From assembly GCA_049296095.1 (NCBI GenBank), contig JBAQRV010000001.1, positions 150,001 through 182,000 of the forward strand: a stretch of 32,000 nucleotides of DNA. The letters run 5' to 3'. Below the pieces are notes generated by a model. It saw only the letters and a program-made list of their open reading frames with translations. It did not search any database and was not told where the DNA came from. Below are positions 1 to 25,368 of the stretch, in pieces; position 1 is the first letter of the stretch, and every line of letters starts with the position of its first letter. This stretch comes from Candidatus Saccharimonadota bacterium. GTDB taxonomy: Bacteria > Patescibacteriota > Saccharimonadia > Saccharimonadales > Saccharimonadaceae. Made by a program: the position numbers and the translations under genes.

Positions 1-3000
1 TGGCGAGTCCAGTTGCGCACATCTGGTTTATGCGCGGAACTCCTTCTGCAATGTCACTATTGCTTGGAATTACCGTTCGTAACCTCGAGCGTATCGCTTA
101 CTTTGCAACCTACGTTGTATTGAAATCAGACGAAGAAACTCGTGACAAGTTCCTTGCCGATCTCGAAGCCGAGACCGAAGCGGGACGTGCTGCGATCAAG
201 ATTCGCTATGAAAAAGAAGCTGAAGCTGAAGGCGCTGACGTAAAAACTCTCGCTGAAGCAATGACTCGTGAGACTGAAGAGTTGAACGAGAGCTACCTCG
301 CGAAGAAGACACAGCTTGAGAGCCTTGTAAAGAACTCTCTCATGAGCGAAGTTGATTATCGAAACCTTCCAGAAGAGTACCAGGATCTCATTGAAGTTGG
401 TATGGGTGGCCAGGCATTGAAGGCACTGCTTGATGCGATCAACCTGAGCGAACTTATCGCTGAGCTGACTGAAGAAGTTGCTGGTGCTAAGGGGCAACGC
501 GAGAAGAAACTTCTCAAGCGCCTGAAGGTGCTTGAGGGTATGCAATCTGCAGGTATCAAGCCATCAAGCTTGACCCTGACTGTGCTTCCAGTGATTCCTC
601 CGGACCTTCGTCCAATGGTGCAGTTGACCGGTGGTCGTTTCGCGACCTCTGACCTTAATGACCTTTATCGTCGCGTTATCAACCGTAACAACCGTTTGAA
701 GAAACTGATCGAGCTCAACGCTCCTGAGGTGATTCGCCGAAACGAAATGCGTATGTTGCAAGAAGCAGTTGATGCTTTGATCGACAACTCAGCAGCTCGT
801 GGTGGCCGTGCGGTGAACGCAACTGGTGGACGACGCCGTCTGAAGTCAATCTCTGACATGCTCAAGGGTAAGCAAGGACGATTCCGTCAGAACTTGCTTG
901 GTAAGCGTGTCGACTACTCTGGACGTTCTGTAATCGTTGTTGGTCCAAAGCTAAAGATTAGCGAATGTGGTCTGCCAAAGCAGATGGCACTCGAACTCTT
1001 TAAGCCGTTTGTGATTCACTGGTTGATTGCTGGGGAATATGCCCACAACATCCGTTCAGCTACTCGTTTGATCGAGTCAGGCGAAGCGATCGTTTGGGAT
1101 GCCCTCGACGCCGTGATTGAAGGTAAGTACGTTCTTTTGAACCGTGCGCCGTCACTTCACCGATTGTCAATCCAGGCTTTCATGCCTAAGTTGGTTGAAG
1201 GTAAAGCTATTCAACTTCACCCACTGGTTGCGAACGGTTTCAACGCCGACTACGACGGTGACCAGATGGCAGTTCACCTTCCTTTGAGCCGTCAGGCACA
1301 ACAGGAAGCTCGTGAGCTGATGAGCGCGACAGCCAACCTCCTAAAGCCAGCTGATGGTGCGCCTGTCCTCTCTATCGCTCAGGACATTGTCCTCGGTAAC
1401 TACTACTTGACCTACGACAAGCCAAGTGCGCAAACTGACGTCCGCAAGGCTTACAGTTCTGTCTATGAGGCTGAAATGGCATATGAGAACAAGGTGATTC
1501 AGCTTCAGACCCCAATCCGCGTTATGACCAAGGGTGAAGTTCGTGATACGACACTGGGACGAGTCTTCTTTAATGAGATTCTGCCAGCTGAATATCCATA
1601 CGACAACAATGTCCAGACCAAAAAGCAACTCAAGAAGGTACTTAATAACATCTTCTTGCAGTATGGTGCTGAAATGACCGCGCAGACTGCTGACCGCATG
1701 AAGGGTATGGCCTTTCGCTTTGCGACCGTCGCTGCCGTATCAACAGGTAAGGATGACTACATTGAATTCGAAGAGACGGCTGAATTCATCGCCGAAGGTG
1801 ACGCGAAAACGACACTGATTAGCGAACAATTCAACCAAGGTCTCATCACCGAAGATGAGCGTTACACCCTCACCGTTGCGACCTGGCGTGGTGTGGTTCG
1901 AAATATTACTGAGTTCCTTCAAGAGAAGCTCAAGGGCATGGATACCAGTGTCTCTGTCATGGTGAACTCTGGTGCTCGTGGTGATATTTCAAACGTCCAG
2001 CTAGCAAGCGCTATGATCGGTATCATGGTCGATGCGACCAACCGTGAAATTGAGCTGCCAATTCGTTCGAGTTACAAGAAGGGTCTGTCATCACTTGAGC
2101 AGTTCGTGGCCACTCGTGGTTCACGTAAGGGTCTGATTGACACCGCGCTTAAGACTGCTGACTCTGGATACCTAACACGACGTTTGGTAGACGTTTCTCA
2201 GGATGTCTTCACCGTTGAAGATACTGCAGGTGACGACGAAGGCTTTACGATCTACCGATCTGAGTCTGAACTGACTATGATCGACTTTGGAAACCGTCTC
2301 TACGGACGATTTGCGGCAGAAAACATCGGCAACTACGTTAAGGCAGGTGAGCTCATTACGCGTGAGATTGCTAACCAAATTGATGTTGACGCTGATATTA
2401 CCGAAGCTAAGATTCGTTCGGTACTCTCAACTAAGAATCTCCGCGGCGTGCCTCAGACTAGCTACGGTATCGATATGTCTACTAACAAGCTTGTCGCGAA
2501 AGCGCAGCCAGTTGGTGTTATCGCTGCCCAATCAGTCGGTGAACCTGGTACCCAGCTAACGCTTCGTACTTTCCACGCCGGTGGTGTGGCCGAAAGTGAC
2601 ATCACCCAGGGTCTCCCTCGTGTTGAAGAGTTATTCGAAGCCCGTTCACCAAAGGGTCAAGCCTTCATGACGGAAGTGACTGGACTCGTTGAGCAGTGGG
2701 AAGATGGCAAGAAGTATATCGTTCAGGTTACTCCTGAAGCAGGACATGTTGAGCGCATCGCGCTTGAAGGACGAACTGCTTCGATTAAGAACGGCAGCAC
2801 CGTAAAGGTCGGAGACGTTCTCGCCAGCGGCGAAAGCGAATCAAAGCCACTGGTTGCACCGTTTGATGGAGTGGTTGAAGTGACTGATGAGCACCTGGTG
2901 CTTGCTGCTAACGCTAGTTCACCAGTTCGTTACGAAGTCCCAGGTAACTACCAGTTGATGGTGAAATCAGGTGACGTTGTTGAAGCTGGTGACCGCCTGA

Positions 3001-21717: not shown

Positions 21718-22308
21718 ATGGCTGAAGTACAACAATCACGACCACAAGGCGGACGTCCACAGGGTAACCGTGGCCCACGTCGCGACCAAGCTCCTGCTGA
21801 ACCAAAGCAATTTGACGAACTCGTTATCAATGTCGACCGTGTCTCACGTGTCGTTAAAGGTGGACGACGTTTCCGATTCAAGGCTTTGGTAGTCGTTGGA
21901 GATCACAAAACCAAGATCGGAGTCGGTGTCGCTAAGGGTGCTGACGTACAAGTCGCTATCCAAAAAGCGACCGATGTTGCCAAGAAGAACCTGATCGTGA
22001 TCCCTGTGATCAACGAAACAATTCCTCATGAAAACGAGATAAAGTTCTCTGGTGCTCGAGTGCTTTTGAAGCCTGCTGCACCTGGTACCGGTATTATCGC
22101 CGGCGGTGTTGTTCGATCGATCATCGGTATGACAGGTATTCGTAACCTTCTTTCAAAGTCGCTCAACTCAACCAACAAGGTAAACATTGCGTATGCGACT
22201 ATCGAAGCGCTTCGCACGCTTGTTCCTAAAGACGAATGGCTCAATGCACCAAAGAAGAAAGTAGCCAAAGCTCCCGTAGCAGAAGCTGCTCCTGAGGAGA
22301 CAAAATAA
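21718..22308 (+). CDS. rpsE: 30S ribosomal protein S5 (with R/G/P/Q-rich N-terminal and K/A/P-rich C-terminal extensions)
   Basis: INVDRVSRVVKGGRRFRFKALVVVGD signature; 196 aa. Confidence 0.97.
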   Translation: MAEVQQSRPQGGRPQGNRGPRRDQAPAEPKQFDELVINVDRVSRVVKGGRRFRFKALVVVGDHKTKIGVGVAKGADVQVAIQKATDVAKKNLIVIPVINETIPHENEIKFSGARVLLKPAAPGTGIIAGGVVRSIIGMTGIRNLLSKSLNSTNKVNIAYATIEALRTLVPKDEWLNAPKKKVAKAPVAEAAPEETK

Positions 22309-22790
22309 TGACTAAGTATAACGAACTCGACATCACAGCCAGTAAAACACGCAAGCGCGTTGGTCGCGGTATCGCAGCCGGACAGGGTAAAACTGCTGGT
22401 CGTGGAACAAAGGGACAGGGCGCACGTACTGGTAAGAAGCTCGGCGCAACCTTCCAAGGTGGTCAGCGAACATTAGTTCGAGCCGTGCCTAAGGCTCGTG
22501 GATTCAAGAGTCTTCGAACGGCGGCACAGGTTGTCTATCTTGATCACCTAAATGCCCTTAAGGGTAAGACTGTCGATAACTTCGTACTGTATGAAGAGGG
22601 TTACATCGCCTCTCCATTTGCAGCAACTAAGGTTATCGCACGCGGTGAATTGACCGAAAAGGTGACTCTCAAGGTTGCAGGCGCGAGCAAAAGCGTTGTT
22701 GAAGCAATCGTAAAGGCTGGTGGAACTTTCGTAAAGACTCCAGTGCCTTTGAAGCAGAGTACTAAGGACGCTGAAGCTAGCGATAAGTAA
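22308..22790 (+). CDS. rplO: 50S ribosomal protein L15
   Basis: KRVGRGIAAGQGKTAGRGTKGQ signature. Its start overlaps the rpsE stop, so no L30 gene lies between. Confidence 0.96.
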   Translation: MTKYNELDITASKTRKRVGRGIAAGQGKTAGRGTKGQGARTGKKLGATFQGGQRTLVRAVPKARGFKSLRTAAQVVYLDHLNALKGKTVDNFVLYEEGYIASPFAATKVIARGELTEKVTLKVAGASKSVVEAIVKAGGTFVKTPVPLKQSTKDAEASDK

Positions 22791-22810
22791 AACTACTGTG
22801 TATAAAGAAA

Positions 22811-22836
22811 AGCATCCGACGCGGGTGCTTTTTTAT
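22811..22836. terminator. Rho-independent terminator after rplO (could function in both directions)
   Basis: AGCATCCG-ACG-CGGGTGCT (8 bp including one G-T pair), followed by TTTTTT on the + strand. The - strand reads GCACCCG..CGGATGC-TTTTCTTT. Confidence 0.8.
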
Positions 22837-22879
22837 TATGAAAATATTCGACAAAAAAAGTACTATATGGTAATTTACT

Positions 22880-23332
22880 ACTGTTAGGCCGTGACGTAAG
22901 TCATGTTCGTCTAATTGCTGAGAGTGCAAAGGCAAAAGGGCAAGGAGCACGGGACTACGGTTGCAAACCCCTAAGATAGGAATGTAGCCGTAGAGAATCC
23001 TAAATCAACTATGTCCTTCGCGAGTTCAGTGACAAGCCAAAGTCATTGGATGGACGATTAAGCGAGTAGCACGCCTTATTGCTACAGACAATCGACGCTG
23101 ACTAGGTGGGAATATAGGAAGCACGAGCGCGTGGCGGCGAGATGTTAGAGTAGGCAACGTAAAACTTACTGCTACATCCCATACTGGTGGAGATCCAGTC
23201 ACCCCTGAAAAAGAGGGTAATGAGAAACACCGGATTAATTCGGTGCCCATCCTGGGGGCGAGAGTTTAGCGGTACCAAGAGTATCGCACCGATGCGCTAA
23301 GCGCTCGGGTCTCTCGCCCCCCATTTTAATTT
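22880..23332 (+). ncRNA. Candidate structured non-coding RNA of unknown class (orientation uncertain)
   Basis: A ~450-nt gap between rplO and secY with stops in every + frame. Multiple local hairpins: 22890-22905 (6 bp, GUAA tetraloop); CTACGG 22955-60 / CCGTAG 22988-93; GTAGCA 23066-71 / TGCTAC 23080-85; AGTAGG 23149-54 / CTTACT 23165-70; CACCG 23228-32 / CGGTG 23241-45. The terminal 11-bp stem GGGGGCGAGAG 23254-64 / CTCTCGCCCCC 23311-21 is followed by CATTTTAATTT. I recognised no known RNA-family consensus. Confidence 0.35.
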
Positions 23333-23344
23333 CCACGCTATACA

Positions 23345-23373
23345 TAGAAAAGCATCTAGTCCTGTAGTATAAT
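23345..23373 (+). promoter_or_regulatory. Promoter candidate for secY
   Basis: TAGAAA (23345-23350, weak -35), 17-nt spacer, TATAAT (23368-23373), 47 nt upstream of ATG 23421. Confidence 0.45.
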
Positions 23374-23420
23374 CAAAGGTAATTGACCGAAACAAAATAG
23401 AGTAGGACTGAACTAGACTG

Positions 23421-24836
23421 ATGAACTGGAAAACAATTCTTAAATCGCTTAAAAACCGCGACATGCAAAAGCGGCTCCTTATCGTTCTCGGTATTATTAT
23501 TGTTTATCGATTGCTGTCCCATGTTCCAGTACCTTTGGCCGAGCCAACACAGCTTCGTGAAGTGATCAATAGCGTCGTGAGCGGTACGGACTTTGGTGGC
23601 TTCCTCAACTTACTTTCTGGTGGTGCGCTGGCGAGTTTCTCGATTGTCCTTGTAGGGCTGACACCTTTTATTACCGCCTCTGTTATTACGCAGCTCTTGA
23701 CCAAAGCTATTCCTCGTCTTGAAGAGCTTCATAAAGACGGCGAGTCTGGTCGCCGCCGCATTAATCAATGGACTCGTGTTGCGACTATCCCACTCGCTAT
23801 TGTGCAATCGATCGCCTTTATTTATATCCTCCGGCAGACCGTCCTGGCGGGCAATACAACTATTCTGACCAATGCATCTCCGATTGAGTGGATCGTGGCC
23901 GTCACCGCTATGACCGCCGGTTCTGTGCTGCTCATGTGGCTTGGTGAATTAATCACCGAACAAGGTGTTGGTAATGGCATAAGTTTACTTATCTTTGCAG
24001 GTATCATCAGCCAACTTCCTTCGATGCTTTCGACGATTGGTTCATCTCTCGTCGATACGACCCAATCAGGGGGCTTGAATGTCTTTAACTGGTTTACCAT
24101 ACCGGTGAATCCATTGGTGTTCTGGGTAGCTTTAGGCATAGTTTTAGTGTCCTTGGCGCTACTGTACATACTGGTTAAAATTAACGAGGCGCAGCGTATC
24201 ATCACGATTAACTATGCCAAGCGTGTCCAGGGTAATAGCAACTACGGTGGTGTCAAAAGCATCCTTCCAGTCAAGCTGATCGCGGCTGGTGTGATTCCTG
24301 TGATCTTTGCCGTCGCTTTCTTGTCACTCCCGGCTTTCTTAGGACAGGTCCTCAAGGCCTCTGGCAATGAAGCGTACGCTGATTTAGCGAATAACCTTAT
24401 CCTTTGGTTCCAGGCGCCAACCCCAGGAGCATTCACAGGATCAACCCTACAGGCCTTTATTTATCCTGGTGCTTACTTTGCGCTCGTGATCCTGTTTACA
24501 TACTTCTACACGGGCATCGTGTTTAACTCGAGCGAGATCGCCGAGAACTTGCAAAAGCAGGGTGGCTTTATCGAAGGTGTGCGACCAGGTAAAAAGACCG
24601 AGGAATACCTATCTATGACGGTAAACAGACTTATTCTGTTCGGATCATTGGTTCTGGGACTTATTGCGGTCACGCCATTCATCGCGGAGTACCTCCTGTA
24701 TCAACTTGCAGGCATTAGTGGTACTAACTTGTCAATTGGCGGTACGGGACTTCTCATCATAGTCTCCGTTGGTCTAGAGGCACTTCGCCAAATCAACTCG
24801 CGCGCGCTGATGGTTACATACGACGATTATAAGTAG
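23421..24836 (+). CDS. secY: Preprotein translocase subunit SecY
   Basis: 471 aa, polytopic. Conserved SecY blocks (GGALASFSIVLVGLTPFITASVITQLL, MWLGELITEQGVGNGISLLIFAGI, GGFIEGVRPGK.T) at the canonical position after L15. Confidence 0.97.
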   Translation: MNWKTILKSLKNRDMQKRLLIVLGIIIVYRLLSHVPVPLAEPTQLREVINSVVSGTDFGGFLNLLSGGALASFSIVLVGLTPFITASVITQLLTKAIPRLEELHKDGESGRRRINQWTRVATIPLAIVQSIAFIYILRQTVLAGNTTILTNASPIEWIVAVTAMTAGSVLLMWLGELITEQGVGNGISLLIFAGIISQLPSMLSTIGSSLVDTTQSGGLNVFNWFTIPVNPLVFWVALGIVLVSLALLYILVKINEAQRIITINYAKRVQGNSNYGGVKSILPVKLIAAGVIPVIFAVAFLSLPAFLGQVLKASGNEAYADLANNLILWFQAPTPGAFTGSTLQAFIYPGAYFALVILFTYFYTGIVFNSSEIAENLQKQGGFIEGVRPGKKTEEYLSMTVNRLILFGSLVLGLIAVTPFIAEYLLYQLAGISGTNLSIGGTGLLIIVSVGLEALRQINSRALMVTYDDYK

Positions 24837-24912: not shown

Positions 24913-25368
24913 GTGGAGCGCTATGCACCTACACGACAGAGGAGTGAAGTGGAAGCCCCACAGACCTACGAAGATATCAAGCGGAACGCATTGCGTTTTG
25001 CAGCCAACACATGGCGTCGTTACCAGACGTATGCCAAGCGGTATATGAGGAAGTACGGACGAACGAGTTCAACGCCGCGACCCGAGGCGTACTTCGATAA
25101 CCGTATTCTCGAGGATACATATGCCATGCAGGGTGGCTCTAACCCCTTGCCATATGGCAAGAAGATTGAGCCGCGCCAAAAACTGGCCGACTCGATCTTG
25201 GCGTACCGTTCTAGTCTGCCCGACCCGTCGATGTTCGACGAGCACTACACGGGTAGTCTAGGGCGACGCATGCCCGGATACAAGGTGACGATTAGCAAGG
25301 CCTTGAGCGCTTCGCGAGCCGTCCACGAAAAGGATTCGATTCGCACCTTCGTCGAGAAGGCAAGCTGA
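24913..25368 (+). CDS. Hypothetical protein, 139-151 aa, basic N-terminal region (no recognised domain)
   Basis: The ORF-track start is GTG 24913. An alternative GTG at 24949 is preceded by AGAGGAG. GC-richer than neighbours (spot counts 31/60 and 35/60). Occupies the slot where adk and map usually sit. Confidence 0.6.
   Translation: MERYAPTRQRSEVEAPQTYEDIKRNALRFAANTWRRYQTYAKRYMRKYGRTSSTPRPEAYFDNRILEDTYAMQGGSNPLPYGKKIEPRQKLADSILAYRSSLPDPSMFDEHYTGSLGRRMPGYKVTISKALSASRAVHEKDSIRTFVEKAS

Follow-up and report, generated by a model that had tools for sequence, protein, structure and literature searches.

What fills the gap between rplO and secY in the spc-type ribosomal cluster of a Candidatus Saccharimonadota bacterium is the question raised by this locus. 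The DNA analysed, referred to here as the window, is a stretch of 32,000 nucleotides (nt) of contig JBAQRV010000001.1 (assembly GCA_049296095.1, positions 150,001 to 182,000 of the forward strand), in which the genes run in the order rplR, rpsE, rplO, spacer, secY, with 630 nt between the end of rplO at 22790 and the start of secY at 23421. A sequence-only reading had noted a structured region of about 450 nt from 22837 onwards in this spacer and had proposed either a dedicated RNA gene of an unclassified kind or a long structured leader of secY. The RNA gene has held up well, as homologous inserts with a shared architecture and covarying helices are found in relatives and no Rfam family is matched. 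Positions of about 22873-23334 on the plus strand can, with good confidence, be assigned to an independent gene for a highly structured non-coding RNA (ncRNA) of about 450 nt, one of a family of 320-490-nt RNAs in a Microsaccharimonas-like subset of the Saccharibacteria. The case is carried by homology, a common architecture, covariation in two helices, termed Hb and He, motifs for a promoter and a terminator, and the lack of a match to a known family.

As that reading had also held, the spacer contains no credible open reading frame (ORF). The longest in the ORF list, of 74 amino acids (aa), lies on the minus strand at 23026-23250, and none of the five spacer ORFs reached the Pfam threshold, a sub-threshold match to Imm17 being the only one seen. 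Comparison with dinucleotide shuffles, which had been proposed as a check, came out in favour of structure. The plus strand folds with a minimum free energy of -164.6 kcal/mol against -137.8 ± 6.1 kcal/mol for the shuffled sequences (z = -4.37, with none of 100 shuffles folding as well), z is -2.39 for the minus strand, and a separate dinucleotide-shuffle scan gave z = -4.84 for 22876-23325 on the plus strand. For 60 background segments of 450 nt from the same 32 kb the mean z is -1.28 (sd 1.2), with one of them below the target, and on the plus strand of 12 homologs z ranges from -1.7 to -6.0. The structure signal is real, and the z-score by itself would not decide what it represents. One of the background segments, outside 22001-23950, has a z of -5.61, and another structured element may exist in the window.

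Relatives of the locus were gathered through SecY, giving 174 loci with 150 distinct rplO-secY spacers, the search covering the rplO-secY neighbourhood. The spacers fall into 91 of 200 nt or less, 5 of 201-400 nt, 37 of 401-850 nt and 17 that are longer. The short ones consist of the rplO terminator, some 25 nt, the conserved promoter TGTAGTATAAT and a leader of about 55 nt, and in about 60% of the relatives the terminator and the secY promoter alone are present at this locus. An insert of 320-490 nt with a common layout was recognised in about 20-25 distinct spacers. Between the window and its closest relatives homology ends at the rplO stop codon and restarts at 23365 in the secY promoter, and a BLASTN search of the window spacer against more than 160 related loci revealed no similarity beyond that promoter. 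Conservation in relatives, to which the sequence-only reading had looked for support, is therefore lacking at the level of BLAST and is apparent in profile searches and in structure. The missing BLAST similarity is explained by the synonymous sites being saturated even between closest relatives, with four-fold degenerate sites only 40-60% identical between the window and locus L163, for which the SecY proteins are 96% identical. That a non-coding block of the same size and architecture is kept at saturated divergence argues for selection. A strain-specific cassette, as the insert was first taken to be, was dropped given the saturated four-fold sites, the nhmmer matches and the shared architecture.

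In the profile searches with nhmmer the window matched L083 with an E-value of about 1e-7 with the promoter excluded, and L163 with 1e-11 over the whole spacers, secY promoter and leader included; the match to L163 was gone in an all-against-all run once the last 62 nt had been trimmed. Iterating a hidden Markov model (HMM) built on the 3' domain brings in 15 loci. The common layout starts with the rplO terminator and a TTGACN-17-TATAAT-like promoter, situated 48-64 nt past the rplO stop in most members and matching the consensus at up to 12/12 positions in L085 and L090. The RNA of 320-490 nt follows, ending in helix He with an intrinsic terminator 5-26 nt further on, and the secY ATG lies about 112-135 nt beyond this terminator, with the secY promoter in between. 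Span-limited folds show the same order of elements in the members. In many there is a hairpin at the 5' end whose loop is of the GYGGUGKGA type. A long domain and then an internal-loop module come next, and the 3' domain consists of a GCGC-type hairpin and the helices Ha, Hb, Hc, Hd and He in that order. On the basis of this architecture the members are the window, L163/L089, L166, L169, L170, L171/L172, L083, L034, L082, L086/L088, L087, L091, L092/L093, L003, L001 and L002, together with L085 and L090, which carry two tandem RNA genes each; L009 and L096 are probably also members. The window shares with the others the position, the plus strand and the 3' domain Ha-Hb-Hc-Hd-He with its terminal stem, and lacks the separate intrinsic terminator 5-26 nt past He.

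The tandem spacers span 1002-2051 of locus L085 and 2027-3000 of locus L090, each with a short gene of about 245-270 nt and a long one of about 460-525 nt. Both genes of L085 have their own promoters (12/12 and 10/12), G-rich terminal stems and terminators, and in L090 the promoter of the first gene scores 12/12, that of the second, at 8/12, being weaker. A further cluster of loci (L099, L115, L117, L132 and L133) has spacers of 450-1300 nt with promoters of 11/12, a different terminal stem (GAGAGGGGGACC/GGTCCYCCTCTC) and a terminator 5 nt on, and judging from these sequences may represent a sister family of RNAs in the same location.

The most independent evidence for pairing comes from the pairwise sequence alignment of L166 and L169. 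Their 3' domains are about 95% identical, with substitutions mostly in the hairpin loops and few in the stems of Ha and Hd, and in the internal-loop module three consecutive pairs have changed in a compensatory manner (AUU/AAU to GCC/GGC), with another such change in the inner stem. Next in weight is the projection of the window helices onto the nhmmer alignment of 12 distinct sequences, which was made without reference to structure, with slid helices as controls. Hb is 93% paired in this alignment with double changes in 4 of its 5 pairs (10-47% paired in the slid controls), He is 71% paired against about 50%, and for the whole set of helices pairing amounts to 62% against 39-49%. The arms of He align by sequence and compensate exactly, as in GGGGCGAGAG/CUCUCGCCCC, GGGGCGGGAG/CUCCCGCCCC, GGGGCGGAAG/CUUCCGCCCC, GGGGCAGAAG/CUUCUGCCCC and GGGGUGGGAG/CUCCCACCCC. 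In a structure-guided skeleton aligned by hand, which is weighted less, 95% of cells pair and double changes are seen in 25 of 29 pairs, with 42-48% pairing in slid controls. About a dozen G·U cells, the orientation of promoter and terminator and the higher plus-strand scores of the covariance models (CMs) described below agree in indicating that the RNA is on the plus strand. MAFFT with RNAalifold, applied to the full RNAs or the 3' domains, gave almost no consensus structure, the alignments being wrong by one or two columns.

Because the MAFFT alignments were too poor for RNAalifold, the CMs were bootstrapped from the hand skeletons, padded with N and with truncated loops, R1 being built from skeleton A5 and R2 from A11. 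The window, which is a seed of both models, scores 38.6 and 37.2 bits, and the matches within its RNA cover 23139-23323 and 23179-23323. R1 missed the seeds L085b and L002 as well as the obvious members L170-L172; R2 recovers all seeds, and non-seeds are weakly detected. The matches to non-seeds are nevertheless at the expected place and on the expected strand, and in about 1.07 Mb of related loci all matches fell within the long spacers, except for some on the reverse strand that score lower and overlap He or lie next to it. Since the models are insensitive, the count of family members rests on architecture.

Every element listed in the sequence-only reading was found again at the same position, and the folds and alignments allow the RNA to be described from end to end. 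The predicted gene, at 22873-23334 on the plus strand, runs for about 450 nt from the predicted start to a U-rich tract after He, and is indicated by the fold z-score, nhmmer and the CMs. The transcript start is most likely between about 22873 and 22884. The structured region of some 450 nt seen in the sequence-only reading was borne out, with the correction that the stretch from 22837 to about 22876 is predicted to be promoter and not RNA. The 6-bp stem with a GUAA loop noted in that reading forms the 5' hairpin at 22890-22905 (CGUGAC-GUAA-GUCAUG, a GNRA loop), seen in the sequence and in the fold of the window RNA. It is followed by a large 5' domain at 22932-23021, in the span-limited minimum-energy fold an extended imperfect hairpin to which analogous long domains, not reliably alignable, are present in homologs, and by a hairpin GUUCAGUGAC/GUCAUUGGAU at 23024-23051 predicted by the folds. 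The internal-loop module at 23055-23094, taken from a span-limited fold, has an outer helix CGAUU/AAUCG, a purine-rich internal loop and an inner helix GUAGCA/UGCUAC, and is present also in L087, L085, L092, L002, L090 and L166/L169.

In the 3' domain Ha lies at 23141-23178, where GAUGU/ACAUC closes an extended hairpin in the structure-guided alignment, and Hb at 23183-23199 (ACUGG-UGGAGAU-CCAGU) is seen in both the HMM alignment from sequence and the skeleton. Hc (ACCC..UGAAAAAG..GGGU) at 23201-23218 and Hd (CACCGG/UCGGUG) at 23228-23245 are indicated by the folds and the structure-guided alignment. The sequence of Hc is near-identical in L083, L092 and L090, and in the structure-guided alignment the helix covaries as CUCC/GGAG, CCCC/GGGG, UCCC/GGGA and AGCU/AGCU. 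He at 23254-23321, apparent as an inverted repeat, in the folds and in homologs, is an 11-bp stem GGGGGCGAGAG/CUCUCGCCCCC closing a three-way junction. This is the hallmark 3' element of the family, a stem of 10-11 bp of the form GGGGCGRRAG/CUYYCGCCCC that usually closes such a junction; the sequence-only reading had described it as a compound hairpin GGGGGCGAGAG/CTCTCGCCCCC followed by CCATTTTAATTT, and the two hairpins nested inside it were found as well. A U-rich tract, CAUUUUAAUUUCC, follows at 23322-23334 and is the sole terminator-like signal for the RNA here. As a terminator He would combine an 11-bp GC-rich stem with CCAUUUUAAUUU; the stem closes a three-way junction, the U tract is interrupted and a stricter scan made no call. 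A conserved pseudoknot or alternative pairing with the interior of He was considered and rejected, as it can be drawn in the window and L170 and not in L083, L090 or L163.

The terminator that had been noted after rplO is present at 22808-22834 on the plus strand (GCATCC-GACGC-GGGTGC, then T6, with stem and T tract at 22812-22834), also as an inverted repeat, and an equivalent lies 3' of rplO in all relatives inspected. A candidate promoter for the RNA gene at 22838-22876 on the plus strand matches 8/12 positions in the promoter scan and can be read as TCGACA (22848-53)-17-TAATTT (22871-76) or as ATGAAA (22838-43)-17-TACTAT (22861-66). The secY promoter, TAGAAA-17-TATAAT at 23345-23373 (plus strand, 10/12), includes the -10 box TATAAT at 23368-23373 pointed out in the sequence-only reading, lies in the conserved TGTAGTATAAT; its spacing to secY is unchanged among relatives, whether or not they carry the insert.

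Three features set the window copy apart as atypical: a weaker promoter, the lack of a separate terminator and flanking direct repeats. The left repeat, TATAAAGAAAAGCATC at 22801-22816, lies 540 nt from the right one, TACATAGAAAAGCATC at 23341-23356, a relic of the 5' half of a terminator, and is 88% identical to it; a second imperfect pair also flanks the RNA (GGTAATTTAC at 22869-22878 and GGTAATTGAC at 23378-23387). These two pairs suggest that the segment 5' of the window RNA is a diverged duplicate of a terminator half together with the secY promoter and the start of its leader. When considered as a target-site duplication, the 16-nt repeat resembles a duplicated terminator half and promoter, and it is not seen in L163. 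The repeats hint at a route of insertion or rearrangement here; the RNA is not obviously mobile.

Taken together, the RNA gene would lie between the terminator of rplO and the promoter of secY, with each member driven by a sigma-70-type promoter directly 3' of that terminator. The predicted RNA would comprise a 5' region, which includes a long domain and the module with the purine-rich internal loop, and a 3' domain in which five hairpins, Ha to He, follow one another. He, a G-rich stem of very high stability, would form the 3' end, and most genomes have an intrinsic terminator after it. It would be a stable RNA acting in trans, most plausibly by binding protein or as a scaffold, and would exert no control in cis over secY. 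A role of this sort is suggested by the strong promoters, by a 3' stem expected to resist exonucleases and by internal loops that are purine-rich and conserved. The patchy presence, the tandem duplication in some genomes and the fast turnover of the sequence indicate an accessory rather than a housekeeping role.

A number of observations weigh against an independent gene of this family. Transcription, the ends of the transcript, action in trans and binding of protein are all predictions, and the search covered the rplO-secY neighbourhood alone. The 5' two-thirds of the window RNA has no convincing alignment to the other members. Its promoter matches the consensus at 8/12 positions against 9-12/12 in homologs and was not called in a stricter scan, and two scans found no separate terminator after He, unlike in most homologs, so that some read-through from the RNA into secY may occur in this genome. 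For some homologs the fold z-score is unremarkable, or the plus strand folds no better than the minus strand. With the 12 sequences of the nhmmer alignment Ha, Hc and Hd are unsupported, because these helices are misaligned there by one or two columns, and the support from the hand skeleton is partly circular, as its hairpins were picked from individual folds. The CM matches to the seeds arise by construction, the models having been bootstrapped from a skeleton that contains them, and those to non-seeds are weak: 20.3 bits (E = 0.0016) for L034, 17.5 bits (E = 0.01) for L003 and 12.4 bits (E = 0.02) for L170.

If the element were not a gene of its own it might act in cis, as part of the secY transcript (a long 5' leader) or of the ribosomal operon transcript (a 3' untranslated region), and control how secY is expressed or how stable the transcript is, for instance through termination or antitermination at He. 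The orientation shared with both neighbours would fit this, as would the absence of a separate terminator in the window, where only about 40 nt separate He with its CAUUUUAAUUU from the -10 box of secY downstream, and the ability of 23133-23142 to pair alternatively with the 3' arm of He. The alternative pairing was not seen, however, in the homologs inspected by eye. Moreover, TGTAGTATAAT, with the secY promoter, is situated 3' of the element and is conserved whether or not the element is there, most homologs have a canonical terminator before the secY promoter as well as a near-consensus promoter for the RNA, and about 60% of relatives (the 91 of 150 spacers of 200 nt or less) express secY without it. 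The secY leader of the sequence-only reading is accordingly abandoned, and a function in cis of either sort is considered unlikely. It would seem rather improbable, too, that the spacer is non-functional DNA, a decayed gene or the relic of a mobile element in a permissive gap between terminator and promoter, the hairpins being due to chance or to GC-rich remnants. The patchy distribution, the varied content of the spacer in close relatives (including a 197-aa gene and a reverse ORF of 260-280 aa), the lack of BLASTN similarity and the imperfect 16-nt direct repeats around the window copy are what would be expected of such DNA. It is not expected that length, promoter, terminator and the order of helices persist while neutral sites are saturated, that Hb and He covary or that substitutions between L166 and L169 avoid the stems, and it is for this persistence and for stems being respected that decay is discounted. 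Searches for signs of a mobile element found no terminal inverted repeats of the kind seen in miniature inverted-repeat elements or insertion sequences at the borders of the insert, no second copy in the 32-kb window, no signal from ORFs or Pfam and nothing similar to the spacer RNA in phage and plasmid collections.

A known housekeeping RNA (RNase P RNA, signal recognition particle (SRP) RNA, transfer-messenger RNA (tmRNA) or 6S RNA) too diverged for its covariance model is very improbable. Like these, the spacer RNA would be a stable, structured, stand-alone RNA gene with a strong promoter and stable ends, its size overlaps those of RNase P RNA and tmRNA, and the short strings GGUGCAAC and GGUAAGGG resemble RNase P motifs. 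The Rfam scan, which had been suggested with the sequence-only reading, matched no family: with Rfam 15 at the gathering thresholds there was no match in the window or in 20 related loci, and at E <= 10 the window spacer, L085, L166 and L092 gave unrelated noise alone, with no match to RNaseP_bact_a/b, SRP RNA, 6S RNA or tmRNA in these four members. ARAGORN found no tRNA or tmRNA in the window, and the Rfam scans of the window gave no match to a riboswitch or T-box. The 3' end of the spacer RNA is a local three-way junction, which fits neither an RNase P RNA closed by its P1 helix nor the tRNA-like end of tmRNA, and, unlike a housekeeping RNA, it is missing from the locus in 60% of close relatives and tandemly duplicated in others. 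The NCBI annotation pipeline (PGAP) annotates ncRNAs, of kinds not specified, in other Saccharibacteria genomes (PMC8830319), which bears indirectly against this alternative. There is scarcely any likelihood that the spacer instead hides one or more small protein-coding genes. Besides the 74-aa ORF in the window, ORFs have been called over the homologous regions of L166 (150 aa, minus strand, 906-1358) and L170 (126 aa, plus strand, 952-1332), but strand, frame and length of these ORFs vary among homologs, they lack support from Pfam, and conservation tracks the stems and loops rather than codons. The hypothetical ORFs called in L166 and L170 are probably spurious and caused by the unrecognised RNA.

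An independent RNA gene, distinct from any secY leader since the secY promoter lies downstream of it, is kept in genomes without it and is preceded by a terminator in homologs, therefore best accounts for the data. Saccharibacteria, like other members of the candidate phyla radiation (CPR), have tiny, dense genomes, and a non-coding gene of about 450 nt that has been kept despite saturated divergence is unlikely to be junk. To our knowledge few classes of large, conserved, structured bacterial RNAs without an assigned function have been recognised, and we know of almost nothing on the RNA biology of this phylum. The large orphan RNAs that have been solved are ribozymes, cores of ribonucleoproteins or self-assembling RNA architectures. 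A tentative extension, possible rather than probable, is that the window RNA is the first seen member of a Saccharibacteria-specific class of large RNAs (about 320-490 nt) with their own strong promoter that do real biochemical work, as a ribozyme or as the core of a ribonucleoprotein serving translation, secretion or the epibiotic lifestyle, and not as a simple regulatory small RNA. The family is small, has a fixed genomic address and offers natural variants with and without the gene in one genus, and so is directly testable; the tandem duplicates and the conserved 3' domain are suited to probing, pull-downs and structure determination. Even if the RNA were merely a stable by-product it would still explain a recurrent unannotated gap and spurious ORF calls in Saccharibacteria assemblies.

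Upstream of the spacer is the coding sequence of rplO (L15) at 22308-22790 on the plus strand, taken from the ORF list and matched by Pfam Ribosomal_L27A on locus L161 (GCA_049286885.1, JBAQET010000003.1), which is identical to the window over 2 kb. Downstream, secY occupies 23421-24836 on the plus strand according to the ORF list and the comparison with relatives, and its product is 100% identical to a protein in NCBI from a metagenome-assembled genome (MAG). The window is from Candidatus Microsaccharimonas sp. (Saccharibacteria/TM7). In the region 21718-22790 the rpsE stop and rplO start overlap, with rpmD (L30) not between them, an adjacency that fits the general absence of L30 from CPR bacteria. 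Beyond secY is an ORF of 151 aa at 24913-25368 of the window (139 aa in the MAG call) with no match in a Pfam scan, and relatives have hypothetical ORFs of unrelated length (117-179 aa) at this position, which in bacterial spc operons is usually that of adk and map.

The rplO-secY spacer serves as a hotspot for cargo of an accessory kind. In very close relatives (92-95% identity in SecY) the same spacer holds a gene for a protein of 195-197 aa, located at 2270-2863 in L164, 164-754 in L167, 798-1385 in L169 and 769-1362 in L173; it is alone in L164 and L173 and is 3' of the RNA gene in L169. The protein from L164 has a hydrophobic stretch at its N-terminus that may be a membrane anchor, and no Pfam match at threshold. 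In the spacers of about 960-1000 nt of L005, L014, L024, L098 and L108 an ORF of 260-280 aa runs in the reverse direction to rplO and secY. Patterns for the He stem match 24 IMG/VR contigs by the stem alone, and these are unrelated to the RNA. One partial match, L182 (IMGVR_UViG_3300037466_001900), a viral contig with iteron-like short repeats of the CCTTCCGCCCC type at 760-960, was rejected on the grounds that it fits the He stem pattern only and that the iteron-like array is unrelated to the RNA.

Among known systems, the leaders of ribosomal-protein operons, such as the S8 site of the spc operon, share with the spacer RNA a location inside the str-S10-spc-alpha cluster and the orientation of the operon. 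The spacer RNA is however some 5-10 times larger, has its own promoter, a terminator upstream and in homologs also one downstream, and the gene that follows it, secY, keeps a promoter of its own. The lysM-TM7 RNA (RF03005) is from the same phylum, but is a cis-regulatory motif of about 138 nt, and its only match, which is to L085 in the wrong orientation, scores 19 bits, at the level of noise compared with a gathering score of 61.5. A CsrB-like GGA sponge, a K-turn, an SRP Alu or S-domain and group II domain V were each considered by inspection of the sequence and rejected, the motifs being inconsistent across members. A full-text literature search found no description of such an RNA, an absence that is not proof. 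The closest comparison is with OLE, GOLLD, ROOL, raiA and HEARO, which are large 'orphan' structured ncRNAs of bacteria. The spacer RNA matches none of their Rfam models (E <= 10), comes from a different phylum (Saccharibacteria, of the CPR) without association with phage or tRNA, is found in all its copies between rplO and secY, the one locus searched, and has a 3' half that is a simple chain of hairpins with no long-range 'ornate' fold demonstrated. In common with them it is several hundred nt in length, has many helices, is patchily distributed and accessory in appearance, seems to have its own transcription and came to light by comparison of structures. It thus appears to constitute a new, lineage-specific and previously undescribed family among the large orphan structured ncRNAs of bacteria.

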